From a virus (Duplodnaviria; Heunggongvirae; Uroviricota; Caudoviricetes), in the IMG/VR virus record IMGVR_UViG_3300041405_000130: a DNA stretch of 64,000 bases; one strand, given 5' to 3'. The notes below the pieces were generated by a model. It did not search any database. It had not been told where the DNA came from and saw nothing but the letters and a program-made list of their open reading frames with translations. Position numbers and translations under genes: made by a program. The stretch's first letter is position 1, and the number at the start of each line of letters is the position of its first letter. Below, piece by piece: positions 438 through 55,449 of the stretch.

Positions 438-524
438 GCGGGGATGGTGGAGCGGTATACGCAGCGGCCTTAAAAGCCGCCGCCCAACTGGGCTCGCTGG
501 GTTCGAATCCCGCTCCCCGCACCA
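438..524 (+). tRNA. tRNA-Leu (anticodon TAA), type II with long variable arm, CCA encoded
   Basis: Acceptor GCGGGGA/TCCCCGC, anticodon arm GCGGC-CTTAAAA-GCCGC, T-loop GGTTCGAATCC, discriminator A, then CCA. Confidence 0.85.
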
Positions 525-530
525 AACATA

Positions 531-560
531 GTGCCTGCCTTTTGGGCAGGCTTTATGCCG
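531..560 (+). terminator. GC hairpin (GCCTGCC-TTTT-GGCAGGC) followed by TTTATGC, after the tRNA; extended -10 TGATATAAT follows at 565-573
   Basis: Read directly from sequence; same stem-TTTATGC arrangement recurs window-wide. Confidence 0.5.
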
Positions 561-564
561 CGTT

Positions 565-573
565 ATGATATAA
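565..573 (+). promoter_or_regulatory. Extended -10 sigma70-like promoter TGaTATAAT upstream of CDS 592
   Basis: TGnTATAAT match; RBS GGAG at 581-584 and ATG at 592 downstream. Confidence 0.45.
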
Positions 574-591
574 TCTTAATGGAGCATAAAT

Positions 592-1317
592 ATGTTCGAA
601 TCACTATTGTCCAGTGGCCACCCAGGCGCTGCAGAAACGGGGGATGTGGTATTCCTATATGACCCTGTTACAAATACGGATCTTGTTGGTGGTCCAGCAG
701 TAACCACACTATCGGGTGGTGCAGTCGCAGATGAAACTATTTTGATCAATGGGCAACCTACTCTTAAATTTCCATCCGTAACAGCAAAACATGTTATTAC
801 ATTTCCTACGGATCTAAATTTAGTCCAAGGTAATTGGACATTGGAGTGGTCGTTTATCAACAACAGTGCGCCAACAGCTTATGCCAACGATTTCGTAATG
901 TACTCTAGAACTGGTGGTGCAGGCGTTGGTCTATATACCCGTTTTGGAGATGGTGGGTTCCTTAACCGTTGGGTATTGTCAGATCCAAGAGGTGCAGCAA
1001 CTCCGAGTCTCACGCAACCTTTACCGTTCACTAAAGCAGCATTGGTTGGGTTAACGACTAACGTAGCCCTGGTCAGTATTGCCGGCGTCATCCGGGTATA
1101 CGTTAACGGCGTAGCTACAATGATGGCCCTGGGTAACGGTAGCACCAACTACAACCAACCTACCTTTATAGCTGAAGGTATGGACAAGATTTATGCATTT
1201 GGTCTAGGTGATGTCAACTCTACTGTTCGAGCAGTACCAGGGAACCGTGGTCGTATTCGACTAAGTAACTTTGCTAGATATAAGAGCAACTACACTCCTG
1301 GCCCATTGACCCTGTAA
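592..1317 (+). CDS. Hypothetical protein embedded in tRNA cluster; concanavalin-A/LamG-like beta-sandwich suspected (RVYVNGV motif)
   Basis: 241-aa ORF, ATG with GGAG RBS 8 nt upstream; weak motif-level resemblance to LamG/lectin folds only. Confidence 0.55.
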   Translation: MFESLLSSGHPGAAETGDVVFLYDPVTNTDLVGGPAVTTLSGGAVADETILINGQPTLKFPSVTAKHVITFPTDLNLVQGNWTLEWSFINNSAPTAYANDFVMYSRTGGAGVGLYTRFGDGGFLNRWVLSDPRGAATPSLTQPLPFTKAALVGLTTNVALVSIAGVIRVYVNGVATMMALGNGSTNYNQPTFIAEGMDKIYAFGLGDVNSTVRAVPGNRGRIRLSNFARYKSNYTPGPLTL

Positions 1318-1345
1318 AAAAATACTACCAGTGTAATAATATACA

Positions 1346-1430
1346 GCGGACATGGCGGAATTGGTAGACGCACTGGATTTAGGTTCCAGCGCCGCAAGGC
1401 GTGAGAGTTCGAGTCTCTCTGTCCGCACCA
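1346..1430 (+). tRNA. tRNA-Leu (anticodon TAG), type II, CCA encoded
   Basis: Acceptor GCGGACA/TGTCCGC, anticodon loop TTTAGGT, long variable arm, T-loop GTTCGAGTC, discriminator A + CCA; close to the enterobacterial tRNA-Leu pattern. Confidence 0.9.
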
Positions 1431-1524
1431 AACGTGCTCTACGGAGCCAACAAGTAAGAGCGTAATCGTTAACGCTTCGTTAACCGAGGTCATGGTGAGA
1501 AAGGAGTGTGGTTCGATTCCACAT

Positions 1525-1556
1525 GATAAGTCTTAAGGACAATAAGCCTTAAGTAA
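1525..1556 (+). other. tRNA-like T-arm fragment (TGTGG-TTCGATT-CCACA) with no pairable acceptor stem; possible tRNA remnant or small RNA
   Basis: Canonical T-loop seen but no 5' acceptor complement in the upstream 100 nt; adjacent perfect hairpins (CTTAAGG...CCTTAAG 1551-1574; ATCGG...CCGAT ~1601-1616). Confidence 0.3.
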
Positions 1557-1631
1557 CTCTGGTGAGACAAATGGTTCGGCCAGCTAGGCCGTTAAATGCA
1601 TCGGCGGAATCCGATCAAGTAGCAAAGTTTT

Positions 1632-1719
1632 GGAAGTATGGCCGAGTGGGTTAAGGCAGCAGTCTTGAAAACTGCCGGGTGTAACAGCCCCTAGAGTTCG
1701 AATCTCTATGCTTCCGCCA
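1632..1719 (+). tRNA. tRNA-Ser (anticodon TGA), type II, CCA encoded
   Basis: Acceptor GGAAGTA/TGCTTCC, anticodon loop CTTGAAA, long variable arm, T-arm TAGAG-TTCGAAT-CTCTA, discriminator G + CCA. Confidence 0.9.
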
Positions 1720-1726
1720 ATTTAGA

Positions 1727-1813
1727 GCTGAGATGGCAGAGTGGACGAATGCGCGGGATTGCAAATCCTGTTTCGAAAGATCATCGGGGGTTCAAATCCC
1801 TCTCTTAGCTCCA
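1727..1813 (+). tRNA. Atypical tRNA with Cys identity (anticodon GCA, discriminator U73) but a ~15-nt variable region and 3-bp D-stem; CCA encoded
   Basis: Acceptor GCTGAGA/TCTTAGC (one G-U pair), anticodon arm CGGGA-TTGCAAA-TCCTG matching the canonical tRNA-Cys anticodon arm, T-arm GGGGG-TTCAAAT-CCCTC; extra TTTCGAAAGATCATC between the anticodon and T arms. Confidence 0.6.
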
Positions 1814-1814
1814 A

Positions 1815-1890
1815 GCCGTTATAGCTCAGTAGGTAGAGCAACTCACTTGTAATGAGAAGGTCGCGGGTTCGATTCCTGCTGACGGCACCA
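1815..1890 (+). tRNA. tRNA-Thr (anticodon TGT), CCA encoded
   Basis: Acceptor GCCGTTA/TGACGGC, D-arm GCTCAGTAGGTAGAGC, anticodon loop CTTGTAA, T-arm GCGGG-TTCGATT-CCTGC, discriminator A + CCA. Confidence 0.9.
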
Positions 1891-1994: not shown

Positions 1995-2381
1995 ATGTAT
2001 CCACACAACTATTTCCCTAAACGTAAAACAGCAGCTGAGCGTCTGCGTGACGGCGAAGCATATCGGGCAATGTTAGATAAACAAACAGCAGCCGAAGCAG
2101 AGCGTACTCGGTTCAAAGGACCTGAGCCAATCCAGGAAGCCATAGTGGCTTATGGAGCTGGCTTACAACCATACTTCAATGACATCCGGGGTGATAGCAC
2201 TTGGAGCAATGCACAGATCTGTGGTAAGTTAGAAATAGCCATGCATGAGATCCGTGACGGCTTTACCGAAAGGCAGAAAGCTTATAAGACATATGAGCCT
2301 ACGGTTGTATTTGTAGAAGAAGGCAGACGTGGATATTTCTCGTTGCGTTTAGATGGTTGGGAAATAGGGAAGATTAGCTAA
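1995..2381 (+). CDS. Hypothetical protein (128 aa)
   Basis: ATG at 1995 with AAGAGGA RBS; the ORF-track start at 1941 (MARLRVSF) is a TTG inside the hairpin element and is rejected. Confidence 0.55.
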   Translation: MYPHNYFPKRKTAAERLRDGEAYRAMLDKQTAAEAERTRFKGPEPIQEAIVAYGAGLQPYFNDIRGDSTWSNAQICGKLEIAMHEIRDGFTERQKAYKTYEPTVVFVEEGRRGYFSLRLDGWEIGKIS

Positions 2382-4129: not shown

Positions 4130-4483
4130 ATGCGATTCAATTGGGAACCCGGTCGACAAGGAACAGGTTACGAGAAATTACAACTCTTAAACCGTTGGAA
4201 GTTCTTTAGTCGATTTAAATGGGATCTTTACTTACTGCGTTACCCGGTAGGCTCAGGTATCCCTAGACATCGTGATCCATTACCTAACCACAGGCATTAC
4301 CGGTTAAACATCTATCTGCGCAACGCAAGTGCAGGTGGTGTCCCTGAACATGATGATGTAATCATAAGCAACCGCTTCTTTACATTGTTCAGACCAGATT
4401 TGTCAACACACAGCGTTAGCCCCGTAACTAAAGGTACGCGCTATGTCTTAAGCTTTGGCTTATCAAAACAAATTAACGTCTAA
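4130..4483 (+). CDS. Small 2-oxoglutarate/Fe(II)-dependent oxygenase-like protein
   Basis: H-x-D (RHRDP) ... H (THSVSP) ... R-x-S (RYVLS) motif arrangement typical of the 2OG-Fe(II) dioxygenase double-stranded beta-helix; GAGG RBS. Confidence 0.5.
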   Translation: MRFNWEPGRQGTGYEKLQLLNRWKFFSRFKWDLYLLRYPVGSGIPRHRDPLPNHRHYRLNIYLRNASAGGVPEHDDVIISNRFFTLFRPDLSTHSVSPVTKGTRYVLSFGLSKQINV

Positions 4484-4511
4484 ACTCTCTTTCCATCCGC
4501 GTGAGGTTTAT

Positions 4512-5777
4512 ATGAAACAAGAAACAAAGACATTTGAAATCATTGGTGGAGAACCCGAACCGGGAACTAAACCGATCAAAGGCTGGACTGTCGGCGTGCC
4601 GGTAGAACCAGAAGCTGTTAAACAACTGAAGAACATTGCTGCACTTCCGTTCATCTATTCCCACGTCGCAGTAATGCCTGACGTTCATTTGGGTAAAGGT
4701 GCAACGGTTGGTTCTGTGATCGCTACTAAAGGCGCTATCGTGCCAGCAGCAGTCGGTGTAGACATTGGGTGCGGAATGGCAGCCCAACGCCTGCGCTTCT
4801 CCTCAGACGCGCTTCCAGAGTCTCTGGGGCATCTCCGTGCCGCTATTGAATCGTGCGTACCTCATGGACGTACGGATAATGGCGGTAAGAACGATCGTGG
4901 TGCTTTTGGTACCGTGTCTATCTTCAATCATCAAGTGAAAGCTGTACGCGAAGAAGCTGAAAAGCTCCGCCGGCAACTGGACTCGATTGTTGAACGGCAT
5001 CCAAAACTGAAGCGTGCTTCTGAGAAAGCCTGGAACCACGTAGGTACACTTGGTACAGGTAACCACTTCATCGAACTGTGTCTAGATGAAACAGATCGTG
5101 TGTGGATTATGCTGCACTCTGGTTCTCGTGGTATTGGTAACGCTATCGGTTCGTACTTCATCGAGAAAGCCAAAGAAGAGATGGGTCGGTTCTTCATCCA
5201 TCTGCCGGACAAAGATCTGTCATATCTTCCAGAAGGTTCCCGTTACTACAACGATTACGTTGAAGCGGTATCCTGGGCGCAGCGCTTTGCTGCATTGAAC
5301 CGTTCGGTAATGATGCACGCTGCACTGGGCGCTATTCACCGTACGTTGGGTCTGCCGATTGATTCTGATATGGAAGCAATCAACTGCCACCACAACTACG
5401 TGTCTGAAGAACGACACATGGGACAAAACGTTATCGTAACTCGTAAGGGTGCGGTAGCTGCTCATGAAGGTACTCTGGGGATCATCCCTGGATCGATGGG
5501 TGCTAAGTCTTTCATCGTTCGCGGTAAAGGTAATCGTGATTCCTTCTGCTCGTGTTCGCATGGAGCTGGTCGTGTCATGTCGCGTACCCAAGCTGCCAAG
5601 ACCTTTACACTGGAAGATCACATCCGTGACACAGCTGGTGTTGAATGCCGTAAGGATATCGAGGTAATCGATGAAACACCTAAGGCATACAAAAACATCG
5701 AAGACGTGATGTCTGCTCAGGAAGAACTGGTAGATATCGTTCATACACTGAAACAATTCCTGTGCGTGAAAGGATGA
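4512..5777 (+). CDS. rtcB: RtcB RNA 3'-phosphate/2',3'-cyclic phosphate to 5'-OH ligase (tRNA/RNA repair)
   Basis: Hallmark RtcB motifs GTLGTGNHFIE, CHHNY and SHGAGR; 421 aa from ATG 4512 (GAGG RBS); the ORF-track start at 4455 is TTG. Confidence 0.9.
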   Translation: MKQETKTFEIIGGEPEPGTKPIKGWTVGVPVEPEAVKQLKNIAALPFIYSHVAVMPDVHLGKGATVGSVIATKGAIVPAAVGVDIGCGMAAQRLRFSSDALPESLGHLRAAIESCVPHGRTDNGGKNDRGAFGTVSIFNHQVKAVREEAEKLRRQLDSIVERHPKLKRASEKAWNHVGTLGTGNHFIELCLDETDRVWIMLHSGSRGIGNAIGSYFIEKAKEEMGRFFIHLPDKDLSYLPEGSRYYNDYVEAVSWAQRFAALNRSVMMHAALGAIHRTLGLPIDSDMEAINCHHNYVSEERHMGQNVIVTRKGAVAAHEGTLGIIPGSMGAKSFIVRGKGNRDSFCSCSHGAGRVMSRTQAAKTFTLEDHIRDTAGVECRKDIEVIDETPKAYKNIEDVMSAQEELVDIVHTLKQFLCVKG

Positions 5778-25167: not shown

Positions 25168-25392
25168 TTAAAGTACCTTGTTATTTTCTTTATCAAACAG
25201 CACGTTAACGCTGAAGAAGCTAGATACGGTGAACCGGTGTGGCCAACCGAGTGGTTTTGGATCAGGTGTGACGGTGTCATCAATGACAAAGCCCACCACG
25301 TTATTTTCAACCCTTACCAGACGATCCGGCATGTAAACTTTAGGGCCGAACTTCGGGCACGTATCATACACACCGTCAGCTAGATTGTGCAT
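25168..25392 (-). CDS. Hypothetical protein (74 aa)
   Basis: ORF. Confidence 0.4.
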
Positions 25393-26624
25393 TGAGGTAT
25401 ACCTTTCTTGTAAGCTTTCAAAGCCATCAGTCTTGCTAACCTGAGTGCTTTACCTAGGTCTGGACCTTTGTACCCTTTTTCAATCAGTGGCTGTGTTTCC
25501 ACAAGGCGCACTGTGTTAGCTGCACAACGCATGTACTCAGCTTGTGGGTATGCACGATGTTCCAAACCATCTCGACCCCTGGCATCCATCTCACATGCGC
25601 GGATGAAATCCTCGAATCGTTGTGGCCTGCGATATATGTCAAAGCTTTGCAACAACTCCAACAATTTCTTTGGCGTTAGTTCCATAGCCCGATGACAATG
25701 GGTGTGGTATTGACACACCAGCGATGCTAATTGCTGGCAATCCTTCGGCACTTTAAATCGAGCATTGACATCATTAACTAATGGCACCCCCGACTTTTCA
25801 TGCTTCAGATGTTGTGGCCATTCCTCTTTAGGAGTTACACCTTTACCCAGATCATGCAACAAACATGCCCAACGAATCGGTAACGATTGCTGAAACAATG
25901 ATGCCTGTCGCAATACACTCAAGATATGTAAGCCAGTACAGATCTCTGGATGATGTGCCGCAGGCTGTGGTACACCAAACAACGCATCAACCTCTGGTAG
26001 CAATACCTTTAGCGCACCACAATCCCGTAACACTTCGATAAAGACATGTGGGTCATCTTCCATTAACGCACGAGATATTTCTTTCCAACTGCGTTCAGCG
26101 GCTAATGTTTTCAGTTCACCAGATTCACTGAGTTGACGCATCAACTCTAATGTTTCAGGTGCCACTGTAAACCCCAAGCATGCATAACGGGCTGCAAAGC
26201 GAGCTACCCGTAATACACGCAATGGATCTTCAGCAAAAGCCGGAGATACATGACGCAGCACTCGATCTTGCAAATCACGCAGACCATTGTAAGGATCAAT
26301 CAGGTTTAGTTGATCATCCTCAGCAATAGCATTAATCGTCAAATCACGACGACTAAGATCTTCTTCCAACGTTACATCAGAACTGGCATGGAAAGTAAAG
26401 CCACCATAACCAGTTCCACTTTTACGTTCGGTACGAGCCAGCGCGTATTCTTCACTCGTCTCCGGATGTAAGAACACAGGGAAATCAGTACCGACTGGTT
26501 TGTAGCCTTGCTCTAACATTTCCTCAGTAGTAGAACCAACCACTACCCAGTCTACGTCAGTTACAGGGAAACCCAGCAATCGGTCACGTACGGCGCCGCC
26601 GACTTTATAAACTGTTGGTTTCAT
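25380..26624 (-). CDS. cca: tRNA nucleotidyltransferase (CCA-adding enzyme) with C-terminal HD domain
   Basis: Strong motif match to bacterial class-II CCA enzymes throughout the N-terminal head: [63 protein letters not shown], then the HDLGKG HD motif. Confidence 0.9.
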
Positions 26625-44272: not shown

Positions 44273-45643
44273 TTAATCGTCAGCTTTCTTGAGCAAGTAC
44301 GAGTTCGAGATAGCTTTCCACGACATTACGCGTTTCAGCGACTTGAACACGATACCTTCACGATAGGTACCTTTCTTCTGGTTGAAAGCACGTTGACCTT
44401 CAGCCATGGCCAGGACATCTTTAACAGTCCACTCTTTCGGAATTACGAAACGTTCGTGCATCACAGGAACGTAGGTCAGACCCAGTTCTTCTACGATCTT
44501 ACGAGCTTCTTCCGGCAGAACTTCTTCGTTACCGTTGCGGTACACGTTGAAGATGTGGTATTCGTGTTCTTCTACACCTTCGAAGCCAGACTGGATGTCA
44601 GGACCGATCTGCTCACCTTGCAGGGTGATGAACTCACCGGTACGAGCATGGTAGGCTTTCAGCTTACCCAGGATGTCGTACTTAGCGATAGTGCGGGTGT
44701 AGTTGTTATCACCACCTTCGGTCTTCGCTTTCCACTCTGGAACAGTGATACCATTCCAACGGATGCGCAGTTTGAAGTTACCTTCGTCATCTTTGGTTTT
44801 CTTCCAAGAAACGATCTTACGGTTACGTGCCAGGAAAGTACCAACCCAGTAACGCAGCTGTTCGGTAAAGGTCCATTCTTCGCCACCGATACCCAGCTCG
44901 TAATTACGCGAGCAGACACCAGTACGAACACCACCATCATTGATGCAGAAAGCAGTCATCGATTGACCGTCGAGTTTGTAAGTTACTTCAAACTCTTCTT
45001 CTTCCGATTGAGCTACCGAGAAAGCAACAGTTTTGTTCTGTACGCGGTCTTGATCGGACTTAATCAGTTGAGCAGGCCATGGCATCAGAGTGCCACCGAT
45101 GTTACCGAGGATCTTACGGATCAAACGGCTGTACCAACCCGAGTTACCCACAGCAGCAGGCCCATCGCGTTCGGTTTGTGGCTTTGGCTCGTACTTCAGG
45201 ATACCGAGTTCCAGAGTCAGGTTAGTATCAACCGGAGCGTCTTTGAACTTATCGGGAACCGGAACCAGCAAACCTTGCGACAGTTCTTTACGCAGTTTGA
45301 TAGTGGTCAGGCGGTGGTAGTTCTCGCCGTTAACACGACGGTTAGACGAACGACGTTCTTCCAGGAAACCAAACAGTGCTACGTTCGACAGCGGTAGCAG
45401 GGAATCGATCTCACAGTAAACAGCGCGTTCGCCTTTCTTGTACTCGCCAATCTTGACGCACAGTTGCCAACCACCAACGACAGCCAGTTCCAATGCATCG
45501 GCATTAGGGTGCTTAACAACGTCATCGATAACAACAATACGTGCAAGCTTGCGATCTTTTTCTACAACACCAAAACCTTCTTTGATCGGCTTGTCAACCA
45601 GAACAGTTTCAGCTACAACTGGAGTAACCACTTCTTGGGTCAT
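44273..45643 (-). CDS. ATP-dependent RNA ligase (KxDG nucleotidyltransferase) fused to an N-terminal tRNA-binding OB-fold (Myf/Trbp111-like) domain
   Basis: N-terminus VVKHPNADALELAVVGGW matches the tRNA-binding-domain signature (KHPDADKL...V.VG); KLDGQS is the ligase motif I; start set at ATG 45643 (GAGGAAGA RBS) rather than GTG 45754. Confidence 0.6.
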   Translation of the reverse strand: MTQEVVTPVVAETVLVDKPIKEGFGVVEKDRKLARIVVIDDVVKHPNADALELAVVGGWQLCVKIGEYKKGERAVYCEIDSLLPLSNVALFGFLEERRSSNRRVNGENYHRLTTIKLRKELSQGLLVPVPDKFKDAPVDTNLTLELGILKYEPKPQTERDGPAAVGNSGWYSRLIRKILGNIGGTLMPWPAQLIKSDQDRVQNKTVAFSVAQSEEEEFEVTYKLDGQSMTAFCINDGGVRTGVCSRNYELGIGGEEWTFTEQLRYWVGTFLARNRKIVSWKKTKDDEGNFKLRIRWNGITVPEWKAKTEGGDNNYTRTIAKYDILGKLKAYHARTGEFITLQGEQIGPDIQSGFEGVEEHEYHIFNVYRNGNEEVLPEEARKIVEELGLTYVPVMHERFVIPKEWTVKDVLAMAEGQRAFNQKKGTYREGIVFKSLKRVMSWKAISNSYLLKKADD

Positions 45644-45707
45644 TGCATCTTCCTCGTGGGATATTGAAACAGATCTCTCTGTATTCAATAATCCACACGA
45701 GTACTTT

Positions 45708-46091
45708 TTAGCAGATAACCGTAAGGGCAGTGGTCTTGTTGTTACTAACGCCACTACTAACCCGGAAGGTCCACGCGTTGTAACCTACACGCCAGTATGG
45801 ATAACGCAGCACGATTACTTGCATGTCACCGGTATACTGCGTTTGCAACGTCTTAACGATTTGATCAACCGAGTACGTCTTTTCTTTCAGTTCCGACAGT
45901 TCAGCAATGGTCGTCTTCTTAACCGACCACGTCCGGGTAACCATGGTTAGCAACCAGATGATCCAAACTACGAAGGCAATGAAACCATCGATCAGGCTGT
46001 TTTGAATCCACCAATACCAACCGGTATCAGCGGGCTTGCGTTTCTTTACTTCACCTGTAATCAAAGAAAACAGGTAAATCAGCTTTTCCAT
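45708..46091 (-). CDS. Membrane protein (127 aa)
   Basis: Two TM helices. Confidence 0.5.
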   Translation of the reverse strand: MEKLIYLFSLITGEVKKRKPADTGWYWWIQNSLIDGFIAFVVWIIWLLTMVTRTWSVKKTTIAELSELKEKTYSVDQIVKTLQTQYTGDMQVIVLRYPYWRVGYNAWTFRVSSGVSNNKTTALTVIC

Positions 46092-46097
46092 TTTGTC

Positions 46098-46529
46098 TCA
46101 CTTCTTCTTTTTAGGTTTACCCGATACTTCATGGGTATAGTCTGTATGGTGTTCATTTGGAATGAAATCCAGTTGTAGGATTTCAATGACTCGACCTTGG
46201 GCATCTTGCACCATACGTGCACCCAGAGTTACGCCACCACTTTCACGGGCGTGTTTCAGCGCGTCACGAAGTGGACCATGGTAATGAGCCACGAAAGTAT
46301 AGGTGCCGTCTGTAACGTTGTGTGTAGGCTCTTTTAGTACAGAGCATACGCTCGTTGGGTTTATCTGTCCCAACCGCCACAGACGACGTTTGGCGTCCTT
46401 GTACGGTGTAAGGTTAGGAACACCAGCTTCTGTTTGCATGCCAATGGCTTTGTATTTCTTTACATAAGCTTCCAGTGCTTCTAGATAACCGTCTGGTTTG
46501 CCTTTTAGATCAATCGTTGTCCGGAACAT
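46098..46529 (-). CDS. Hypothetical protein (143 aa), His-rich, Lys tail
   Basis: ORF. Confidence 0.5.
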   Translation of the reverse strand: MFRTTIDLKGKPDGYLEALEAYVKKYKAIGMQTEAGVPNLTPYKDAKRRLWRLGQINPTSVCSVLKEPTHNVTDGTYTFVAHYHGPLRDALKHARESGGVTLGARMVQDAQGRVIEILQLDFIPNEHHTDYTHEVSGKPKKKK

Positions 46530-47374: not shown

Positions 47375-48799
47375 TTAAACAGCTACAGGGGCTTCAATGG
47401 CTGGTTGTGGATTGTAACCAATCACTTCCAGGTCATGATAAGTCATATCCAGGATCGATGTGCCGACTGGCAAGTTGATCTTCAGACGTGGTAGCTCCTG
47501 ATCAGGAATGCGCTGTTGTTGCAGATCCACTTGGTCCAAATGGTTCAAGTAAATGTGGGCATCGCCGACCATGTGGATCAGTTCTTCACCGTACATATTA
47601 AACTGGTGTGCCAGCTTGTGCGTCAGCGAGGAATAGAATGTCAGGTTATATGGCGCACCCAAGAACACGTCATTGGAACGCATGTAGAACAGACAAGTCA
47701 AGCCACGACGTGGAATATTCAATGCATCACAGTACGCGTGCAGCTTGACGTCATCGCGCTGATATGCGTTATCAATTACGGTACAGAACAAATCCAGTGG
47801 ATAAGGTGCATGTGTCGTATAAATGTCAGCATGACTACGTTTGGCGATGTCTTGATAAAGTTCCTTTTGTTCCCGTGCAAACCGCTCAACATAAATGTCA
47901 TAGCGTTCACATGGGTCTAATTCACGAGTCCAGAACTGAATGAACGAATGGCAAGGTGGCAAAGCTTGCTCATCTACAAACAATGGATTCCATGGACACA
48001 AAATCAAACGACGAGAATCAGGGTTGTGTTCCAGATTCTTCAACAGCTCAGCGAATTGATCGAAGTCACGATGGTAGATGTCTTTGGTAGAGACGTCATC
48101 CGATACAGGGGTCATTGAACCCATGTACTCGAACCCACGCGCATGCATCTTCATGTGTTCTTCGTTACTCAGTGGATCAACCATCCGAGTGTCAGGGATG
48201 CTACGGAACATTGCACCGTAAACTTTACCGAGTTCGCCATCAACAACTTCTTGATCGGAGATACCCAGAGCAGTATAGAACTCAAACCACAGAGGATCTT
48301 CTTTATCTTCCCACCGTTTTACGTTCACATTGTTGTCCGATTTATCTAGGACCATGTGTCGCTCGTTAGGAAACACGTAGATCTTGTAATCATCTCCGAC
48401 ATGGAGTAGAGTCCAATGCTCAATTTCTTCCTCAGTTGACCCAGCACTGAAGACACCTGGCTCTTCCCAACCGAAATGGTTACGCTTGTAGGCACGACGC
48501 ATTTCTTTCAGCAACCGCGGGCGGTAAGTACCTGTACCTTCCAGTACCCATTCATCCCAGATGTTGCAGTTGTTCTCTTTTAAGAACTTCAGACGGGTAT
48601 CACCGGAGATCATCCAGTCTTCTTCGACTTGACCGGTTTTGATGTGAATCTTTTTGGTTGATACTGCAGCCAAACGGTTGCCGCGAATATCATAGCGGCG
48701 TACTACACCTGGTGCCGAGATAGTGCCGGTGTTAGTACGATCTTCTTTCTTTACACCGCGCTCTAGAACTTCGCGCTGCATTGACAAATACTGGTCCAT
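47375..48799 (-). CDS. thyA: Thymidylate synthase (ThyA) homologue with three large insertions (474 aa versus the canonical ~264); could be a dUMP-modifying variant
   Basis: ThyA motifs conserved: QYLSMQREVLERGVKKEDRTNTGT, IWDEW, GKVYGAMFR, PDSRRLILCPWNP, PPCHSFIQFW (catalytic Cys), RSNDVFLGAPYN (Asn indicates dUMP specificity), GDAHIY..H, and a C-terminal ...AIEAPVAV; true ATG at 48799. Confidence 0.8.
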   Translation of the reverse strand: MDQYLSMQREVLERGVKKEDRTNTGTISAPGVVRRYDIRGNRLAAVSTKKIHIKTGQVEEDWMISGDTRLKFLKENNCNIWDEWVLEGTGTYRPRLLKEMRRAYKRNHFGWEEPGVFSAGSTEEEIEHWTLLHVGDDYKIYVFPNERHMVLDKSDNNVNVKRWEDKEDPLWFEFYTALGISDQEVVDGELGKVYGAMFRSIPDTRMVDPLSNEEHMKMHARGFEYMGSMTPVSDDVSTKDIYHRDFDQFAELLKNLEHNPDSRRLILCPWNPLFVDEQALPPCHSFIQFWTRELDPCERYDIYVERFAREQKELYQDIAKRSHADIYTTHAPYPLDLFCTVIDNAYQRDDVKLHAYCDALNIPRRGLTCLFYMRSNDVFLGAPYNLTFYSSLTHKLAHQFNMYGEELIHMVGDAHIYLNHLDQVDLQQQRIPDQELPRLKINLPVGTSILDMTYHDLEVIGYNPQPAIEAPVAV

Positions 48800-48821
48800 C
48801 AAATTCTCCTGTGGTTATACA

Positions 48822-49468: not shown

Positions 49469-51292
49469 TTATGCGGCTTCTTCTACTTCAGGAGCAAACT
49501 CACGTTGGATCGATGCTTCAATACGTGCACGCATATCACCAAGTGTTACTTGACGCAGGAACTTACCATTACGGAACAATGGCTTCAGTTCGCCAGAACC
49601 GTTCAGCAGGTCATCCCAGGTCATATCGACTTCTTGTTCGAGACGGTAGTTGAAATCCGAATCCTGTACCACGCGCAGGAAGCCTTTAGCCGACTTCTTG
49701 GACAGTGCAGTTTTTGGATCTTTGTACAGCTCGATCAGTTCGTCATTCACTTCGCAAGCAGTGGCTTTCATCGCCATGCCGAAAGTATCACGAGTGTTCA
49801 TCTGGTAGGTATAAGAACCGATACCCAGAACCACGTTAGACGATGCGTAGCCTTTCTCAGCCAGACGGCGGAAGATTTGCTCTGCACGTTCAACAGTGAT
49901 AGAGTCACCGTAGATCAGACCGATGTATTCGTTCAGGACTTTGTAGCCCTTAGTGTTTACATGGCCACCGAAAGAAGCCCACAGCGATTCGATCGCACCA
50001 CGTGCTTCCACTTCGCGCATCTCACGACCGAGTAGTTCTTCGGCAGTGGAGTTGCTGAACTGATGTGGGTTTCTGTGGTTTTGCAATTCGTAGAACTTAT
50101 CGCCGATACGGATAGCTTCACCGTTAACAGCTTCCCAACCGATGTTGTGCAGGGCTGCAACGAAGTCTTCGCGAGAATTGTACTCGACCAGATAGAAGCC
50201 ACAGATCACATGAACCGGATTGCCCGAGTCAGGACGAACTACAACTTTAGCCAGACCGAGTTCGTTCTTGATTCGGCTTTCGATTTCGGCACGGATCGAT
50301 GGTAACAGATCGGCAACTACCGACCAGAAGTCAAACGAATCGCATACCAGCGAGATGATACCGGTCTTGACTTTCTGCAGGATGATTTCCAGAATGTATT
50401 CGCGCTCACATTCCAGTTTCAGCTTGTCGATGAAAGCAGCCCAGTTTTCAGGAGCGATGGTCTCACTATCTTTGTCCAGCCACTTCAGCTTTTGTTTCAG
50501 GCGGGACAGGATGTTTGCAGTGGCTACGGCGTGCTCAGTAGCAGTAACCGAACCAGCAATCAACTCCTTATCGGAATCGGCGTGATACAAGCCCTCCAGG
50601 TAATCGATAGCCGGAACGGTATCGGTACCAGTAAACGACAACATGTGACCAGCGTTCGAACGACCAGCAGCTTCTGGGCCAGGCATACCACGGAACGAGA
50701 AGTCATGACCCTGCCATTGCACGTGCAGGTTATTGTCACAGGTCTCTTCGGCCCAGTGCTCCATGACCCGACGATATTCGTAGGCGATGGTTGCGTTAGT
50801 GATCGACTGCCAGTTATACGAACTGGTGATGGTTTCCAGATAGTTAACCAACCAGTAATGTTCTTTCTCATCATCGGAACTGTAAACAACCCACAGTGGG
50901 ATACCGATGTTAACACGCTGACCTTCTTCCAGCGCCAGTACGGTGACCGGCAGGTAACCCAGATCGTGAAGCTTAGCGATCTGACGGGTGGAAATAACGT
51001 CTACACCGCAAGCATTGTCGAAACGACGCTTGACTTCTTTAACAGCTTTCTTCTTCTCTACTTGGAAGAAGGTACGGTCCCACAGTTCAACCAGTTCTTG
51101 CCAGGTGCCATAGAGACCGAAGTTCACAACTTTGTTATCGTAGTGAACAGAGCAGGATTTGGAGTTCAGGAAGTTCTTCGCCGAACGAGGGGTGAAGTTG
51201 GAATACTTCCGGGTGGTGCCTTCTGGGTACAGAGGACCGTGACCAGGTTTGTAGAAGTCAGTAGCGGTTGCTGCTTTAAGCCATTGTGCCAT
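49469..51292 (-). CDS. nadV: Nicotinamide phosphoribosyltransferase (NadV/NAMPT family)
   Basis: N-terminus DFYKPGHGPLYPEGT...SNFTPRS matches the NadV/NAMPT signature (DSYK.SH...YP....S.FTPR); 607 aa type-II PRTase; AAGGAA RBS. Confidence 0.75.
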   Translation of the reverse strand: MAQWLKAATATDFYKPGHGPLYPEGTTRKYSNFTPRSAKNFLNSKSCSVHYDNKVVNFGLYGTWQELVELWDRTFFQVEKKKAVKEVKRRFDNACGVDVISTRQIAKLHDLGYLPVTVLALEEGQRVNIGIPLWVVYSSDDEKEHYWLVNYLETITSSYNWQSITNATIAYEYRRVMEHWAEETCDNNLHVQWQGHDFSFRGMPGPEAAGRSNAGHMLSFTGTDTVPAIDYLEGLYHADSDKELIAGSVTATEHAVATANILSRLKQKLKWLDKDSETIAPENWAAFIDKLKLECEREYILEIILQKVKTGIISLVCDSFDFWSVVADLLPSIRAEIESRIKNELGLAKVVVRPDSGNPVHVICGFYLVEYNSREDFVAALHNIGWEAVNGEAIRIGDKFYELQNHRNPHQFSNSTAEELLGREMREVEARGAIESLWASFGGHVNTKGYKVLNEYIGLIYGDSITVERAEQIFRRLAEKGYASSNVVLGIGSYTYQMNTRDTFGMAMKATACEVNDELIELYKDPKTALSKKSAKGFLRVVQDSDFNYRLEQEVDMTWDDLLNGSGELKPLFRNGKFLRQVTLGDMRARIEASIQREFAPEVEEAA

Positions 51293-51310
51293 GTTGAATC
51301 AATTCCTTGT

Positions 51311-52255
51311 TTACAGGTGCTTGAATGCGATCAGGTTTTCAGGATTGTTTTCACGCTGCGGTAAGTCAACGTGATAAGTGTTCATGGTGTAGACTTTGTC
51401 AAAGACACTGGTCAACACTTCAACACCAGCGGAGAAAATACCGTGGGTAACGTACAACGACAACGAACCCAGATCATAGTCCTTCAGAACTTTTGCCAGT
51501 TCGGTAAAGGTACGTCCACCGTCACAGATATCGTCAACGATCAACAGATCTTCACCAGCCAGATCAGTCAGTTCCATTACTTCATCGCCAGCAACAAAGC
51601 TGTCAACGGTAGTGCGCAGGATCTTACCATCACGAGTGTTACGAACTTTATTGGCATACACGATGCCTTTAAAGCCAAACTCTTTTGCCAGTGATTCTAC
51701 CTTCTTACGTGCACCAGCATCAGGTGCAACCAGAATGGTATTCTTGGGATTGATGCGATCATCATTACCCCAATCCAACATGTGTTTACGGAACAGATCA
51801 TTCAGCGAGAACACACGTGCATTGTTCAATACCGAACCAATAACGTCAGAGTGCGGATCAGTCAAGATCACACGTTCTACGTCAAGGCTATTGATGACAT
51901 GAGCAAATGCTTTAGCCGAATTCGCTTCACCTGGGTTACACACACGGTCTTGTCGAGCGTATGGCATGTAGCCGATGTCAAGCGTGATTGATGGGTTGGC
52001 CACCAATGCGTTTTCACGAATAGCGTTTACAGCCATGATCAAAGACCACGCTGCCGCCGCATCTGGTAGAGCTGCAACGATCCGATAGCTTTCACCTTTG
52101 AACCACTGGCCCTTCTGGCTCATGCCATCTTCACGAGGAATGGATACGTTTACTTCACCAGCCGGAAACATCCGACCATCACGAATTTCGGTAGGGAACG
52201 AGCGAGTCACTCCCACACCTTCATGCGTTACGATCAGTTTCAGATTCTGATTCAT
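51311..52255 (-). CDS. prs: Ribose-phosphate pyrophosphokinase (PRPP synthetase)
   Basis: PRPP-binding loop LLIVDDICDGGRT and a bipartite PRTase fold; co-operonic with nadV. Confidence 0.75.
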   Translation of the reverse strand: MNQNLKLIVTHEGVGVTRSFPTEIRDGRMFPAGEVNVSIPREDGMSQKGQWFKGESYRIVAALPDAAAAWSLIMAVNAIRENALVANPSITLDIGYMPYARQDRVCNPGEANSAKAFAHVINSLDVERVILTDPHSDVIGSVLNNARVFSLNDLFRKHMLDWGNDDRINPKNTILVAPDAGARKKVESLAKEFGFKGIVYANKVRNTRDGKILRTTVDSFVAGDEVMELTDLAGEDLLIVDDICDGGRTFTELAKVLKDYDLGSLSLYVTHGIFSAGVEVLTSVFDKVYTMNTYHVDLPQRENNPENLIAFKHL

Positions 52256-52619: not shown

Positions 52620-53996
52620 TTATGCGGCGGCTGCAATATCCAGTTGTTGGGAAGCATTAGCCGCTTTCTTTTTGATAGGTGGGCGCGGTGGCTCTGGTTG
52701 TAGAGCATAGTTCTCCGCGACGTATTTGTCATCCAACGTATCCAGCTTATCAATGAAGGCCAGATGATCGTCAGGGTGTTCCATGAAGATCCCTGCCAAA
52801 GTAGAAGCGGGAACATCTGGGTACACTACATTACGATCGTAAGTAGGATTATCATACATCGAGTCAATGTAACGCTTGATCTCAGGGTCTTTCAACGGCA
52901 ACACTTCGATCAGTTTGTTCACACGGGACGGACGGTAGACCGCTGGGTCGATCAGTTCCAAGTGGTTAGTAGTCAGGATGATAATGATGTCATCCAGTTC
53001 TACAACGCCTTGTAGGACGTTGAGGAAGGTACTGAGTTGAATCTCACAGTCCATCAACAACGCTTCTGGTTTCTTATCAGCACTGCCGCCATCGAAATCA
53101 GACATTTCGACTTTCTTAGCACCAACCCGTCGGTGCAAAGATTTCACATCATCAAAGTCTTCAATGACCAACATATCGCCAGGAGACAGTTTACCCATCA
53201 GATCCACTAACTGACGACCATGGGAAGCCAGATTGAGGAAGTGGATGTCTCGCTTGTACTTACGACCAGCCCGTTTGATCAACGAAGTTTTACCAGTACC
53301 GGGAGGACCGTGCAACACGATGGTGTGCTTGTAAGCCAAACCACGTTTACGGTACCAAGCTTCGTTCTTCATGTACCAGTCGATAGAGCCAAAGAAATCT
53401 TTCTCTACTTCAGGATCAATGATCAATGTTTCGTCTGCATCTAAACGCAACCGGCCTTGGAAGTTCCAACCGTCATTGGCTGGACCATAGATTCGGATGG
53501 ACTTTTTGCATGGCTTGATTCGGAACTCTTCTACCAGTTCTTCAAATGGAGCAGTAGTACGACCGAACGTATAAAGCGTAAACTCTTCTTTCTCGATATC
53601 GGTACCGGAAGAATTCAAACGTACCACGTTAAACCAGAAGTAGCGACCTTTCCAGACGAACCAGTGAAAGCCAGTACCAGGACCAAAGGCTGGATTATCT
53701 CGATCGAATGTAACACGACGATTACGATCGTACTTAGCCCATTTCGACTTGGAGAACCATCGCATAAACTCGATGTAGTTCTGCATGTCCATGGAATAAG
53801 AACCAGCACGAGTGAAGGTCATTGACGAGATGGTGTTCCGTTTAATGAAACTCCAGATCGTTCTGGGAATGGTACGTCCCAGATAACCCAACAAGCCCAT
53901 AAGGCCCAAGGTCATAAAACCTTTTACCGTTGAGTCTCCCGAACTCAACATTTCTAGCGTCTTGTGAAAGAACGCCAAAATATCTGTTACAAGCAT
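52620..53996 (-). CDS. BCS1-like membrane-anchored AAA+ ATPase
   Basis: N-terminal TM (MTLGLMGLLGYLG), Walker A GPPGTGKTS, Walker B MLVIEDFDD (BCS1-type IEDxD), Arg-finger region; 458 aa. Confidence 0.65.
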   Translation of the reverse strand: MLVTDILAFFHKTLEMLSSGDSTVKGFMTLGLMGLLGYLGRTIPRTIWSFIKRNTISSMTFTRAGSYSMDMQNYIEFMRWFSKSKWAKYDRNRRVTFDRDNPAFGPGTGFHWFVWKGRYFWFNVVRLNSSGTDIEKEEFTLYTFGRTTAPFEELVEEFRIKPCKKSIRIYGPANDGWNFQGRLRLDADETLIIDPEVEKDFFGSIDWYMKNEAWYRKRGLAYKHTIVLHGPPGTGKTSLIKRAGRKYKRDIHFLNLASHGRQLVDLMGKLSPGDMLVIEDFDDVKSLHRRVGAKKVEMSDFDGGSADKKPEALLMDCEIQLSTFLNVLQGVVELDDIIIILTTNHLELIDPAVYRPSRVNKLIEVLPLKDPEIKRYIDSMYDNPTYDRNVVYPDVPASTLAGIFMEHPDDHLAFIDKLDTLDDKYVAENYALQPEPPRPPIKKKAANASQQLDIAAAA

Positions 53997-54706
53997 TATT
54001 CCGCCCCAGGCATCAGCAGTACTGTTGTGTCGAAACCTTCGGCTCGGACATAGTCAAAGAAAGGATCTTCCAAGCCTACCTCTTCACCAGGTTCGCATTT
54101 TTCTTTCAGGTGATTATCGCAATAAACGATAGCGTTTTCTGTTTGGCGTTTTACCAAACGGAAGAAATCCGCTGTAAGTAACAGCACCACAGTGATTGTC
54201 AAGTGTTTGGTAGTACGCGGTATCGACCACTTGTGATCTTCGCGCTCATCCAGGCCAACCCCAACTACGATCATGTCGAAGTTTTCACGGAGTTGGTCAT
54301 AACCGAGGCGTTGTTGTGAACGGAGACCTTCTAATTGGACGTCCAAACCCCAGCTCATTACGTGGTTGATGGTAGCGGCATGAATCATTTCATGAATGGC
54401 ACCATACGAATTTTCGGCGTCGTTTAGATCGGGCCAATACGTACGGATGTTTTCATGCATAACCCACAGATTGCCATCTGCCATTCGACTCATGGGAACC
54501 GTACGGATGTTAACCTGTACGAGTTCTTTAGAATCGATCGACAATGCTTCAGGCATCCACGCCAGTTTGTCGTACATCAGATCATTCAGATCGTACCGAT
54601 TGATCGGAGCAAACGCTGGTTTGTCGGCAATGAAATGAAAGATACCAGCTATGCGTGGCCGGGAAGAGCTTTGTACAATGTGAGCCTTTTGTTCAACCAA
54701 ATTCAC
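53996..54706 (-). CDS. Putative zinc metalloprotease (HExxH, metzincin-like HEMIHAATINH spacing)
   Basis: HEMIH with a third His at +10; GTG start with strong GAAGGAGG RBS; translationally coupled between the SspB-like and AAA genes. Confidence 0.45.
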   Translation of the reverse strand: MNLVEQKAHIVQSSSRPRIAGIFHFIADKPAFAPINRYDLNDLMYDKLAWMPEALSIDSKELVQVNIRTVPMSRMADGNLWVMHENIRTYWPDLNDAENSYGAIHEMIHAATINHVMSWGLDVQLEGLRSQQRLGYDQLRENFDMIVVGVGLDEREDHKWSIPRTTKHLTITVVLLLTADFFRLVKRQTENAIVYCDNHLKEKCEPGEEVGLEDPFFDYVRAEGFDTTVLLMPGAE

Positions 54707-55449
54707 GCTTTGCCTCCTTCAATTACACGCCAGTTGTTAGGTATAGCGCGTTTGACTTTTGCTGCTGGCAGTTGTGTGCCATTTACATTGCCGAAGTTCA
54801 GTAATGGTGCAGGTTGTTCTTTTGCAACCGGTTTTGCAGGACGTTGTGCCAGGGGCTTACGACGCATGAGTTCCACATTGGTCGGCAGTTTATTACCTTC
54901 CTCATCATGAGTAGCAATTTCCACACCATGTACAGCGTACGGAGAATCTTCAATAGCCTTTGCAGCTTTGAATGGAGGTGGAGTGGTATCTTGAGCAGAA
55001 CCTGGGAATGTCCCGCCACCTTCGAAAGCATTCAACTGAGGAATGCCTTCTTCTTCAAACATTTTGTGGAGATCTTGCATTTGTTTCACCCCGAGCAATT
55101 CACGCTCGAAGTTAGGAATGGGGAGAATGCTTTCGTAGTTCTCTGTGGTTGGTACAGCGAAGCCCAGTACTGCTTCGTACGGAACTTCCAGATAAACATC
55201 AGCACCATTATAGCCACACTGAAAACTGAAGTTGTCTTCATTGTAACGGAAATTGCGAGTTGCGTTTGCAGCGATATTCAGACGGATCTGGTATAACCCG
55301 TTGATCTCTGGTTCTAACAGCCCGACATCAAACATCCGAGCATCGGTGATGATGTGAATACGACGGGACATGTCCATGTCGACGAACCATTGAATCATGG
55401 TATTCATAATTGCGCGAGTCATGTTCAGCTCAGGTGCTACTTGTTGCAT
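54703..55449 (-). CDS. SspB-like ClpXP specificity-enhancing adaptor homologue
   Basis: N-terminal domain aligns with SspB residues 10-100 (W..D...H..VD.....V.VP.....G.I.LNIA..A..N......V.F.....G......VP..AVL.....EN); Pro-rich linker and a C-terminal ..WRVIEGGKA tail reminiscent of the SspB ClpX-binding LRVVK. Confidence 0.55.
   Translation of the reverse strand: MQQVAPELNMTRAIMNTMIQWFVDMDMSRRIHIITDARMFDVGLLEPEINGLYQIRLNIAANATRNFRYNEDNFSFQCGYNGADVYLEVPYEAVLGFAVPTTENYESILPIPNFERELLGVKQMQDLHKMFEEEGIPQLNAFEGGGTFPGSAQDTTPPPFKAAKAIEDSPYAVHGVEIATHDEEGNKLPTNVELMRRKPLAQRPAKPVAKEQPAPLLNFGNVNGTQLPAAKVKRAIPNNWRVIEGGKA

Follow-up and report, generated by a model that had tools for sequence, protein, structure and literature searches.

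The 64,000 nucleotides of phage DNA analysed here (the window) contain a gene, at 44273-45643, that an initial annotation had read as an RNA ligase fused to a tRNA-binding OB domain, and the locus raises the question of what such an enzyme repairs and whether its N-terminal domain directs it to tRNA. The window derives from a Chimalliviridae-like jumbo phage of the Pseudomonas type, closest to Pseudomonas phage D6; the placement rests on homologues in PhiPA3 and Psa21. An ORF at 7155-9098, considered as the phage-nucleus shell protein, matched only hypothetical or virion proteins and was set aside. On the evidence described below, the gene probably encodes an ATP-dependent nick-sealing ligase of the Rnl5 family that may be part of an RNA-repair toolkit of this phage.

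The ORF list gives a minus-strand ORF at 44273..45754 that begins with GTG. Because a Shine-Dalgarno-like GAGGAAG precedes the ATG at 45643 (core GAGGA at 45651-45655, spacing to the ATG of 7 nt) and the upstream gene ends at 45708, we take 44273-45643 as the right gene, coding for 456 aa. This span had been given correctly from the outset, with the strand left unstated; it is the minus strand. The gene and its parts are the following.

44273..45643, minus strand: Rnl5-family RNA ligase, complete coding sequence of 456 aa plus stop (ORF list, Pfam, phrog_968, NgrRnl, AF2 model)
45649..45655, minus strand: Shine-Dalgarno-like GAGGAAG (read from the sequence)
45563..45643, minus strand: clade-specific N-terminal extension, residues 1-27, including a conserved KPIKEGFGVVE (homologue comparison)
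45176..45562, minus strand: N-terminal OB domain, residues 28-156, the Rnl5 signature module with a tRNA_bind-class OB fold
45074..45175, minus strand: inter-domain linker, residues 157-190 (AF2 model, homologue comparison)
44276..45073, minus strand: nucleotidyltransferase (adenylyltransferase) domain, residues 191-456 (PF09414, NgrRnl alignment, invariant columns, Foldseek)
44960..44977, minus strand: motif I KLDGQS with the predicted AMP-accepting K223 (aligned to KLDGSS, Lys170, of NgrRnl)
44630..44890, minus strand: variable segment inserted between motif Ia and motif III, residues 252-338 (NgrRnl alignment gap, AF2 secondary structure)

The N-terminal extension, modelled with a pLDDT of 63-77, is shared with the closest homologues; short-form homologues lack it and start just before an RKLA motif.

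Pfam assigns residues 34-129 to PF21189 ('PHA02142 OB-fold', E = 1.5e-22) and residues 216-439 to PF09414 (RNA_ligase, E = 1.7e-16), and the AF2 model (pLDDT 90.3, pTM 0.80) has the same order of an OB module followed by a nucleotidyltransferase domain, as in Rnl5. NgrRnl of Naegleria gruberi, the Rnl5 prototype (PDB 5COT, 5COU, 6VT0-6VTG), was matched by phmmer in PDB (E = 3.1e-37), with three stretches spanning both domains, and the predicted fold superposes on it in Foldseek with E = 1e-28 and a TM of 0.83 normalised to NgrRnl; the other Foldseek matches were REL1, T4 Rnl2, Rnl3 and Rnl1. The proposed combination of an RNA ligase with an OB domain is thus present, as is the KxDG-family fold. 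The chain stops 13 residues past motif V and so has no C-terminal domain, which is likewise the case for Rnl5 (PMC1807946). The ligase also matches phrog_968, 'RNA ligase' (E = 2.2e-107), and 3391 cluster representatives match it at E ≤ 1e-10. The sole NCBIfam match, TIGR02306 (RNA_lig_DRB0094, 7.7e-36), is split in two by the insert and, at 123.6 bits, lies under the curated equivalog cutoff of 151.15; at the level of sequence, homology is clear and the curated 'same function' threshold is missed. The gene product is an ordinary further member of the Rnl5 nick-sealing RNA ligases. The fusion is not a new one: it is the defining layout of Rnl5 (DraRnl/NgrRnl) and has been known since 2007, when the N module of DraRnl was likened to PheRS-beta B2 and a phage homologue (Aeromonas phage 44RR2.8t) was described (PMC1807946); the family (DraRnl/NgrRnl) got its name in 2015 (PMC4408790). 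Published work already covers the family and its structure, the two-metal mechanism, the tRNA-synthetase-like origin of the N-domain and the occurrence in phages.

Across the aligned structure, the amoebal enzyme NgrRnl and the phage ligase are only 27% identical. The phage ligase exceeds NgrRnl by 116 aa, through its N-terminal extension of 27 aa, a lengthened linker that contains an added helix, and some 60 further residues between motif Ia and motif III; it also retains KHPNAD, a motif absent from NgrRnl. The founding member of the family, DraRnl of Deinococcus radiodurans (DR_B0094; TIGR02306), is a 342-aa OB and nucleotidyltransferase protein that acts on duplex nicks, sealing those with an RNA 3'-OH; it is bacterial, is tied to radiation recovery (PMC5397189) and lacks the long insert of the phage ligase. 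In a tblastn search, 337 phage records matched the ligase. Phage proteins of the same family, labelled 'RNA ligase' in GenBank, include those of Aeromonas phages 44RR2.8t and 25, the Pakpunavirus JG004/PAK_P1 group and BcepSauron (phrog_968); the Aeromonas, Pakpunavirus and BcepSauron proteins have 360-380 aa and are without all or most of the insert and N-terminal extension. Only about 28 of the 150 top clusters at 50% identity have the long form, and these derive mostly from ~300 kb contigs. Outside the family, T4 Rnl2 and the kinetoplastid RNA-editing ligase REL1 (both of the Rnl2 family) have the nucleotidyltransferase fold in common with the phage ligase (Foldseek E = 1.7e-6 to 1e-4) and, like Rnl5, prefer duplex nicks with an RNA 3'-OH in vitro (PMC5397189). 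The Rnl2 family, however, carries a helical domain at its C-terminus and lacks the N-terminal OB, which is the reverse of the phage layout, and the nucleotidyltransferase domain alone aligns, at 9-13% identity. T4 Rnl1 gave only weak matches at the level of this domain (Foldseek E about 1e-4). T4 Rnl1 gets its tRNA specificity from a C-terminal domain, which the phage ligase lacks; of a linked Pnkp, the other feature of the T4 Rnl1 type, there is no sign among the window ORFs scanned or in 80 IMG/VR loci.

The tRNA-binding signature quoted for the N-terminus was found at 45470-45517 as V43-KHPNADALELAVVGG-G58. The domain carries the motifs KHPNAD..L (residues 44-51) and KLRKELSQGLL (residues 116-126), and hhalign of an N-domain profile with residues 1-200 of E. 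coli PheT gave a probability of 88% and E = 3e-6, with 33% identity over 82 columns and with the HPNAD.L and KLRG.S.G motifs both aligned. The domain is not a generic OB: its fold belongs to the tRNA_bind sub-type, and it shares ancestry with the tRNA_bind OBs (PF01588) of PheRS-beta B2, Trbp111, CsaA and EMAPII; the comparison set also includes YtpR/3BU2, YgjH, MetRS-C and Arc1p. The Rnl5 OB differs from tRNA_bind OBs in having an extra helix and hairpin inserted at about residues 85-112 and, unlike them, is joined to the active site of a ligase and binds ATP there. With hhalign, the N-domain profile matched YgjH at E = 4.5e-4 and a probability of 33%, and MetG-C not significantly; among PDB sequences, its sole non-Rnl5 matches were YgjH (E = 0.4) and MetRS-C (E = 0.95), which are suggestive, not significant. 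In Pfam, the isolated N domain matched PF21189 only, with no match to tRNA_bind at E ≤ 10, a search in which HMMER filters may conceal very weak matches.

The initial annotation had gone on to interpret the OB as a tRNA-targeting module and the enzyme as a dedicated tRNA-repair ligase, acting for instance on the anticodon loop and needing an end-healing kinase/phosphatase that is either not yet recognised or supplied by the host. We consider this unlikely. The Pfam result and the non-significant YgjH and MetRS-C profile matches speak against it, and the demonstrated role of the Rnl5 OB is a catalytic one (PMC7261155): lysine adenylylation, the first step, depends on the OB domain (PMC7261155, PMC4408790), and in NgrRnl Arg4, Lys121 and Asp53 contact the ATP gamma-phosphate and a metal (PMC7261155). 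By alignment, Arg4, Asp53 and Lys121 correspond to R31, D80 and K150 in the OB domain of the phage ligase, where the ATP-contacting residues are kept; across 58 homologues neither D80 nor K150 varies and R31 is conserved in at least 90%, and all three are invariant in a 33-sequence alignment of the N-domain. Within Rnl5, the N-terminal OB works as a built-in catalytic module. Furthermore, the Rnl5 papers cited here report tRNA binding for no member, and the characterised enzymes require a nicked duplex, sealing duplex nicks with an RNA 3'-OH strand and not anticodon-loop breaks (PMC4408790, PMC5397189).

As to the end-healing partner, the observation that no obvious Pnkp is adjacent holds. A Pfam scan covering the majority of the window ORFs that reach 150 aa, and several smaller ligase neighbours, found no kinase or phosphatase, including no HAD, 2H or Metallophos domain, and a Walker-A regular expression run across the window matched solely a BCS1-like AAA ATPase and no P-loop kinase. 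A DxDxT-like string was discounted, since it is antisense to another ORF. The ORF at 46098-46529, singled out earlier as His-rich, has 7 His in 143 aa (4.9%), and its sole match is phrog_7478, a group with the label head maturation protease (E = 1.2e-10); with no Pfam or NCBIfam match and no phosphoesterase signature, it was rejected as a phosphoesterase or end-healer. Rnl5 homologues of 702 and 1138 aa, considered as fusions with healing domains, are intein-containing ligases instead. A PseT-type Pnkp lies near Rnl5 in none of the 80 IMG/VR viral loci, and this, together with the lack of a kinase or phosphatase linked to Rnl5 in the window, also argues against the tRNA-targeting interpretation. 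A novel partner is, moreover, not required: breaks with 3'-OH/5'-PO4 ends need none, RtcB takes the other end chemistry, and the window also has a CCA-adding enzyme with an HD domain.

4455..5777, plus strand: RtcB, a 3'-P/5'-OH RNA ligase (PF01139, E = 2.9e-126)
25380..26624, minus strand: CCA-adding enzyme with an HD domain (PF01743, PF12627 and PF01966)
438..1890, plus strand: cluster of tRNA genes, Leu-taa, Leu-tag, Ser-tga, Cys-gca and Thr-tgt (ARAGORN)

The RtcB ORF is listed from a TTG but probably begins at the ATG near 4512; the CCA/HD gene scores 648.5 bits against a cutoff of 451 for NCBIfam NF008137, 'multifunctional CCA addition/repair protein'. In the window, the distance from the ligase is 39 kb to RtcB, 18 kb to the CCA/HD gene and 42 kb to the tRNAs; the genes that neighbour it are those of thymidylate synthase, NAMPT and PRPP synthetase. 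In Erwinia phage pEa_SNUABM_37, Rnl5 is followed by RtcB after 10 nt; RtcB stands 264 nt upstream of Rnl5 in an IMG/VR contig whose ligase is 63% identical (L020) and 16 nt downstream of it in another (L033); and in a compost jumbo-phage contig (L013) the CCA/HD gene overlaps the start of Rnl5 by 13 nt. Aeromonas phage 25 carries rnlA and pseT within 5 kb, a further link to RNA repair. This placement of Rnl5 beside RtcB or overlapping CCA/HD in relatives lends support to a role in RNA repair. Of the dedicated tRNA repair originally proposed, it is the RNA-repair role that gains from gene order, and the sealing of anticodon loops that is disfavoured by the duplex nicks on which Rnl5 acts. Proximity to tRNA genes was rejected as evidence, as such genes lie within 10 kb in 14 of the 80 loci, a figure that does not clearly exceed chance in phages with tRNA arrays. 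A recurrent DUF2828/DUF7788 neighbour, which may be Ro/TROVE-like, had no match among PDB sequences and no informative literature.

A role in phage DNA replication or repair, in which the ligase would seal a 3'-ribonucleotide patch abutting 5'-PO4 DNA, as proposed for DraRnl, appears improbable as well. DraRnl does take DNA both as the template and as the 5'-PO4 strand, and in its absence genome reassembly after irradiation is delayed; radiation sensitivity with this delay, in Deinococcus, is the only genetic phenotype of an Rnl5, and post-irradiation DNA repair is the single physiological role known for the family (PMC5397189). Rnl5 genes also recur within replication and nucleotide-metabolism modules: near ThyA here and in D6 and two contigs (L008, L012), alongside primase-helicase, PolA, dNMP kinase, dUTPase, ThyX and RNR in a third (L009), after RNR genes in a fourth (L011), after a topoisomerase in BcepSauron, and between gp32 and frd-td in Aeromonas phage 25. 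Across the 80 loci, genes of NAD salvage and nucleotide metabolism, NAMPT (12) and ThyA/Td (9), are more frequent neighbours than the RNA-repair genes RtcB (3) and RnlA (3), which also counts against an RNA-repair role. However, NAMPT and PRPP synthetase are NAD-salvage and not replication genes, and the tightest linkages, by overlap or by gaps of 10-16 nt, join Rnl5 to the genes of two RNA enzymes, RtcB and CCA/HD. Phage accessory genes of any kind are often found among early or metabolic genes, so that such clustering is weak evidence for a role in DNA repair.

The nucleotidyltransferase motifs of the ligase comprise R200, K223-LDG with D225 (motif I), S245-R-N (Ia), Q342-G-E344 (III), R428-E429-G (IV) and K443 (V). 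The KLDGQS lysine-adenylation motif noted at the outset is there, as K223-LDGQS-S228 at 44960-44977; in the 58 sequences, K223, G226 and S228 are invariant, and L224 and D225 at least 90% conserved. Arg149, Lys170, Asp172, Glu227, Glu312 and Lys326 of NgrRnl align with R200, K223, D225, E344, E429 and K443, so that, with the three in the OB domain, nine mapped catalytic or ATP-binding residues, whose roles are known from NgrRnl (PMC7261155), are all kept, each invariant or at least 90% conserved in the 58 homologues. The insert (residues 252-338) takes the place of about 27 residues in NgrRnl, leaving an alignment gap from 251 to 339 of the query; the AF2 model gives it a helix at 259-273, a basic beta-hairpin at 278-296 and helices at 314-335. 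It shows graded presence across phage homologues and, searched alone against Pfam, had no match. The linker is disordered at 158-167 (pLDDT < 50) and has a clade-specific helix at 170-179 in the model; this segment is missing from the Aeromonas and Burkholderia phage homologues. Apart from the clade-specific insert of ~60 aa and the N-terminal extension, the protein has no unusual features. Both could shift its specificity, and the insert marks a sub-family that perhaps deserves one biochemical comparison. The TIGR02306 score under the equivalog cutoff and the large insert within the nucleotidyltransferase domain might suggest a ligase homologue that has lost catalysis or been repurposed, or else an ORF called in error, but this is highly improbable given the nine retained residues, the confident predicted fold, a start codon with a good Shine-Dalgarno sequence and a clade deeply conserved at 40-85% identity across many ~300 kb contigs. 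We regard the Rnl5 family, the fold and the catalytic residues as established, and infer ligase activity, substrate and biological role.

For the Rnl5 nick-sealing ligase that we favour, a mechanism may be proposed from the family and the conserved residues. Lys223 of motif I would attack the ATP alpha-phosphate to give ligase-AMP, with two metal ions held via D225, E344 and E429 and the phosphates bound by K443 and R200. The OB domain would close over the site, R31, K150 and D80 orienting the pyrophosphate leaving group; AMP would be transferred to the 5'-PO4 end, and the break would be sealed by attack of the RNA 3'-OH. The enzyme would most likely reseal breaks with 3'-OH/5'-PO4 ends where RNA is base-paired, for example in the stems of tRNA or rRNA, with RtcB (for 3'-P or cyclic-P/5'-OH ends) and the CCA-adding/HD enzyme as parallel partners. 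Encoded at scattered sites, the three may form one RNA-repair toolkit that counters host ribonucleases. In a review of jumbo phages, co-occurring RtcB and ATP-dependent ligases are treated as non-redundant RNA repair for different end chemistries (PMC7824862), and the physiological substrates of Rnl5 have been termed 'uncharted' (PMC5397189).

More tentatively, the long-form chimallivirus Rnl5 might be a specialised ligase of broken tRNA or rRNA that acts with RtcB and CCA/HD as a counter-defence against tRNA-cleaving host RNases, a possibility to which we give only modest credence. This specialised interpretation draws on the N-terminal extension, the linker helix, the basic helix-hairpin insert and the PheT-like OB motifs. 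If true, it would provide the first physiological role for a viral Rnl5 and would mean that the tRNA_bind-like domain does take part in RNA recognition. In chimallivirus-type phages, the DNA lies inside the phage nucleus and translation takes place in the cytoplasm. Together with the adjacency of RtcB and CCA/HD, this separation of DNA and translation offers a concrete handle on the question of whether Rnl5 serves RNA or DNA repair.

The ligase gene lies within one long open reading frame (44273-45754, minus strand), in which we take the ATG at 45643 to be the right start, because a GAGGAAG sequence is found at 45649-45655 (with the GAGGA core 7 nt before the ATG), the preceding gene stops at 45708, and the resulting N-terminus is common to the closest homologues in the alignment. 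The product is 456 aa long, and the GC content of the gene, 0.476, is unremarkable within the window. The sequence contains both motifs quoted in the initial annotation, VKHPNADALELAVVGG (residues 43-58) and KLDGQS (residues 223-228).

[quoted passage not shown] In Pfam, it matched PF21189 ('PHA02142 OB-fold', residues 34-129, E = 1.5e-22) and PF09414 (RNA_ligase, residues 216-439, E = 1.7e-16), in PHROGs phrog_968 'RNA ligase' (2.2e-107), and in NCBIfam solely TIGR02306 (RNA_lig_DRB0094, 7.7e-36), with 123.6 bits falling below the curated cutoff of 151.15. A phmmer search of all PDB sequences found NgrRnl (E = 3e-37) in three stretches spanning both domains. An AlphaFold2 model built from 58 homologues was confident (pLDDT 90.3, pTM 0.80), and its top Foldseek matches were the 13 NgrRnl entries (E about 1e-28, TM 0.79-0.84 relative to NgrRnl), followed, at the level of the nucleotidyltransferase fold, by REL1, T4 Rnl2, archaeal Rnl3, T4 Rnl1 and DNA ligases. 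The KxDG-family fold, whose absence would have refuted the initial annotation, is therefore present in the model. The functional residues of NgrRnl align to R200, K223, D225, E344, E429 and K443 in the nucleotidyltransferase domain and to R31, D80 and K150 in the OB domain; all nine are invariant or at least 90% conserved in the 58-sequence alignment. Since the protein stops 13 residues past motif V, it has no C-terminal domain, an absence that is a hallmark of Rnl5 (PMC1807946; PMC4408790).

The N-terminal domain was proposed to be of the tRNA-binding type rather than a generic OB fold, and this is borne out by hhalign, which aligned its profile with residues 1-200 of E. coli PheT (probability 88%, E = 3e-6, 33% identity, 82 columns), pairing HPNADKL with HPNADAL and KLRGEPSEGML with KLRKELSQGLL. 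Of the two Pfam models suggested for checking, RNA_ligase matched, whereas tRNA_bind did not match the N domain, and the profile gave only weak hits to PDB sequences (YgjH, E = 0.4; MetRS-C, E = 0.95). Because these direct tests were negative or weak, the domain is regarded as a diverged relative of tRNA_bind, given its own Pfam model. The 126-aa N module of DraRnl was described as a putative homologue of the PheRS-beta domain B2 OB fold by Raymond and Shuman (2007, PMC1807946), who also included a homologue from Aeromonas phage 44RR2.8t in an alignment. In characterised enzymes, lysine adenylylation and nick sealing as a whole depend on this domain, but sealing of pre-adenylylated nicks does not (PMC4408790, PMC7261155), and in the Michaelis complex the domain touches the ATP gamma-phosphate and the second metal (PMC7261155). 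The OB-nucleotidyltransferase architecture is thus no novel fusion but the textbook layout that defines Rnl5, with a demonstrated catalytic role for the OB domain.

The family is large, with 3391 cluster representatives (50% identity) at E <= 1e-10 and 337 phage GenBank records identified by tblastn. The closest relatives, among them those in Pseudomonas phages D6, Psa21, PhiPA3 and Phabio, are already annotated 'RNA ligase', and a JGI protein 99% identical to the ligase is labelled 'TIGR02306 family'. Some homologues carry one or two inteins (Intein_splicing with LAGLIDADG_2/_3, LAGLIDADG homing endonucleases) inside the nucleotidyltransferase domain, such as P0152 (702 aa) and P0164 (1138 aa). 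In comparison with NgrRnl and with short forms from phages (Aeromonas phage 25, BcepSauron, JG004), the ligase has three additions: 27 conserved residues extend the N-terminus, the linker between the two domains is longer and contains an extra helix, and motifs Ia and III are separated by about 60 more residues (252-338, versus ~27 residues in NgrRnl). This insert, which had no Pfam match, was modelled by AlphaFold2 as one helix, then a basic beta-hairpin and a further pair of helices. Its length is graded over homologues, the full long form occurring in ~28 of the 150 best cluster representatives; the insert is clade-specific, and might offer a further surface for contact with nucleic acids.

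At the DNA and protein levels, the best matches are to jumbo phages of Pseudomonas, namely D6 (72% aa), Psa21, BRkr and PhiPA3, of which PhiPA3 and Psa21 are classified as Chimalliviridae. The gene order around the ligase is that of D6: BCS1-like AAA ATPase, PRPP synthetase, NAMPT, enlarged thymidylate synthase, small ORFs, ligase.

Genes in the ligase region and a Band_7 gene elsewhere in the window
31544-32407, minus: Band_7/SPFH protein
47375-48802, minus: thymidylate synthase, 475 aa versus 266 Pfam model positions, matched in two stretches
49469-52255, minus: NAMPT (607 aa) and PRPP-synthetase-like protein (314 aa), NAD-salvage pair just upstream of ThyA/ligase
52620-53996, minus: BCS1-N and AAA ATPase; D6 counterpart annotated 'cell division protein'
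54703-55449, minus: SspB-like protein (ClpXP adaptor family), E = 2.5e-5, below cutoff

The length and split match of the thymidylate synthase imply large insertions; the enlarged form is kept in D6 and several jumbo-phage contigs (465-474 aa). Band_7 genes lie 0.5-1.2 kb from Rnl5 in three unrelated phage contigs.

The initial annotation found no polynucleotide kinase-phosphatase near the ligase, and none was detected when most window ORFs of 150 aa or more, and the ligase neighbours, were scanned with Pfam; the only Walker-A motif in the window is that of the AAA ATPase. ORF 46098-46529, described as His-rich, contains 4.9% His and matches, weakly, only a PHROG family labelled 'head maturation protease'. 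Five tRNA genes and the following genes were found.

RNA-related and adjacent genes in the window
2381-3262, plus: radical-SAM-like protein (PF04055 at 25.9 bits, under the gathering score of 29.5), with the tRNA cluster on one side and RtcB on the other
4455-5777, plus: RtcB (E = 2.9e-126)
25380-26624, minus: full-length 'multifunctional CCA addition/repair protein' with HD domain (648 bits, cutoff 451)

In E. coli Cca, the HD domain acts as a 2',3'-cyclic phosphodiesterase and as a phosphatase, and that of the phage enzyme could be a source of 3'-end healing. RtcB would join 3'-phosphate or cyclic phosphate to 5'-OH ends, and Rnl5 3'-OH to 5'-phosphate ends. As the two would between them span both end chemistries, a novel healing partner need not be postulated. 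In a comparative review, co-occurring ligases of jumbo phages have likewise been read as split by end chemistry (PMC7824862).

Within the tRNA cluster, a 241-aa ORF (592-1317, plus) between two tRNA-Leu genes matches only the C-terminal part of phrog_3545 (positions 764-975 of 1115), a family of unknown function, and the ARAGORN tRNA-Cys(GCA) at 1727-1813 (plus) is, at 87 nt, unusually long for a Cys tRNA, which suggests a long variable arm or mis-assignment. Directly downstream of RtcB, ORFs 5779-6738, 7155-9098 and 9118-9942 (plus; 319, 647 and 274 aa) had no Pfam match, the first two no PHROG match, and the first none in NCBIfam; homologues of the 647-aa ORF occur only in D6, Psa21 and RVTF4, one annotated 'virion structural protein'.

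In relatives, the tightest Rnl5 linkages are to RNA enzymes. RtcB starts 10 nt past the Rnl5 stop in Erwinia phage pEa_SNUABM_37, lies 16 nt downstream in viral contig L033, and 264 nt upstream in L020 (310 kb; ligase 63% identical), where both genes sit in the PRPPs-NAMPT-AAA module that the window also has; the BCS1-like AAA ATPase gene of L020 is between NAMPT and RtcB. In a 267-kb contig from compost (L013), a CCA/HD gene and the start of Rnl5 share 13 nt, and rnlA and pseT are within 5 kb of Rnl5 in Aeromonas phage 25. Against this stand the counts from a tblastn survey of 80 viral (IMG/VR) loci, up to 10 kb each side of Rnl5.

Neighbours of Rnl5 among 80 loci
NAMPT: 12, most frequent, in quite different phages
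ThyA/Td: 9
DUF2828/DUF7788 protein: 9
PRPP synthetase: 8
PolA: 5
ThyX: 3
RNR: 3
RtcB: 3
RnlA: 3
PseT-type Pnkp within 10 kb: 0
CCA-adding enzyme within 10 kb: 0

The DUF2828/DUF7788 protein (~500 aa; L016 6698-8224, also L035-L039, L047, L060, L085, L087 and L090) often has a tRNA array on one side and the ligase on the other; it had no match among PDB sequences, no useful literature was found, and it may be Ro/TROVE-like.

Known Rnl5 substrates are duplex nicks with RNA as the 3'-OH strand (PMC4408790, PMC5397189), and the only known physiology is that of a Deinococcus knockout, radiation-sensitive and slow in genome reassembly (PMC5397189). Overall, we favour a role in RNA repair, with about even confidence. 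The main rival, a role in DNA repair or replication, to which the knockout phenotype is relevant, we consider rather unlikely beside the RtcB and CCA/HD linkages. Dedication to tRNA repair, a subset of the RNA-repair reading, is similarly doubtful. Of the 80 loci, 14 carry tRNA genes within 10 kb of Rnl5, not clearly above chance. The initial observation is confirmed, and its interpretation stands in part: for the domains and the chemistry, an RNA ligase with a tRNA-binding-type OB domain, and not for dedicated tRNA repair. What the ligase adds is a member of a known family, Rnl5, with a clade-specific insert.
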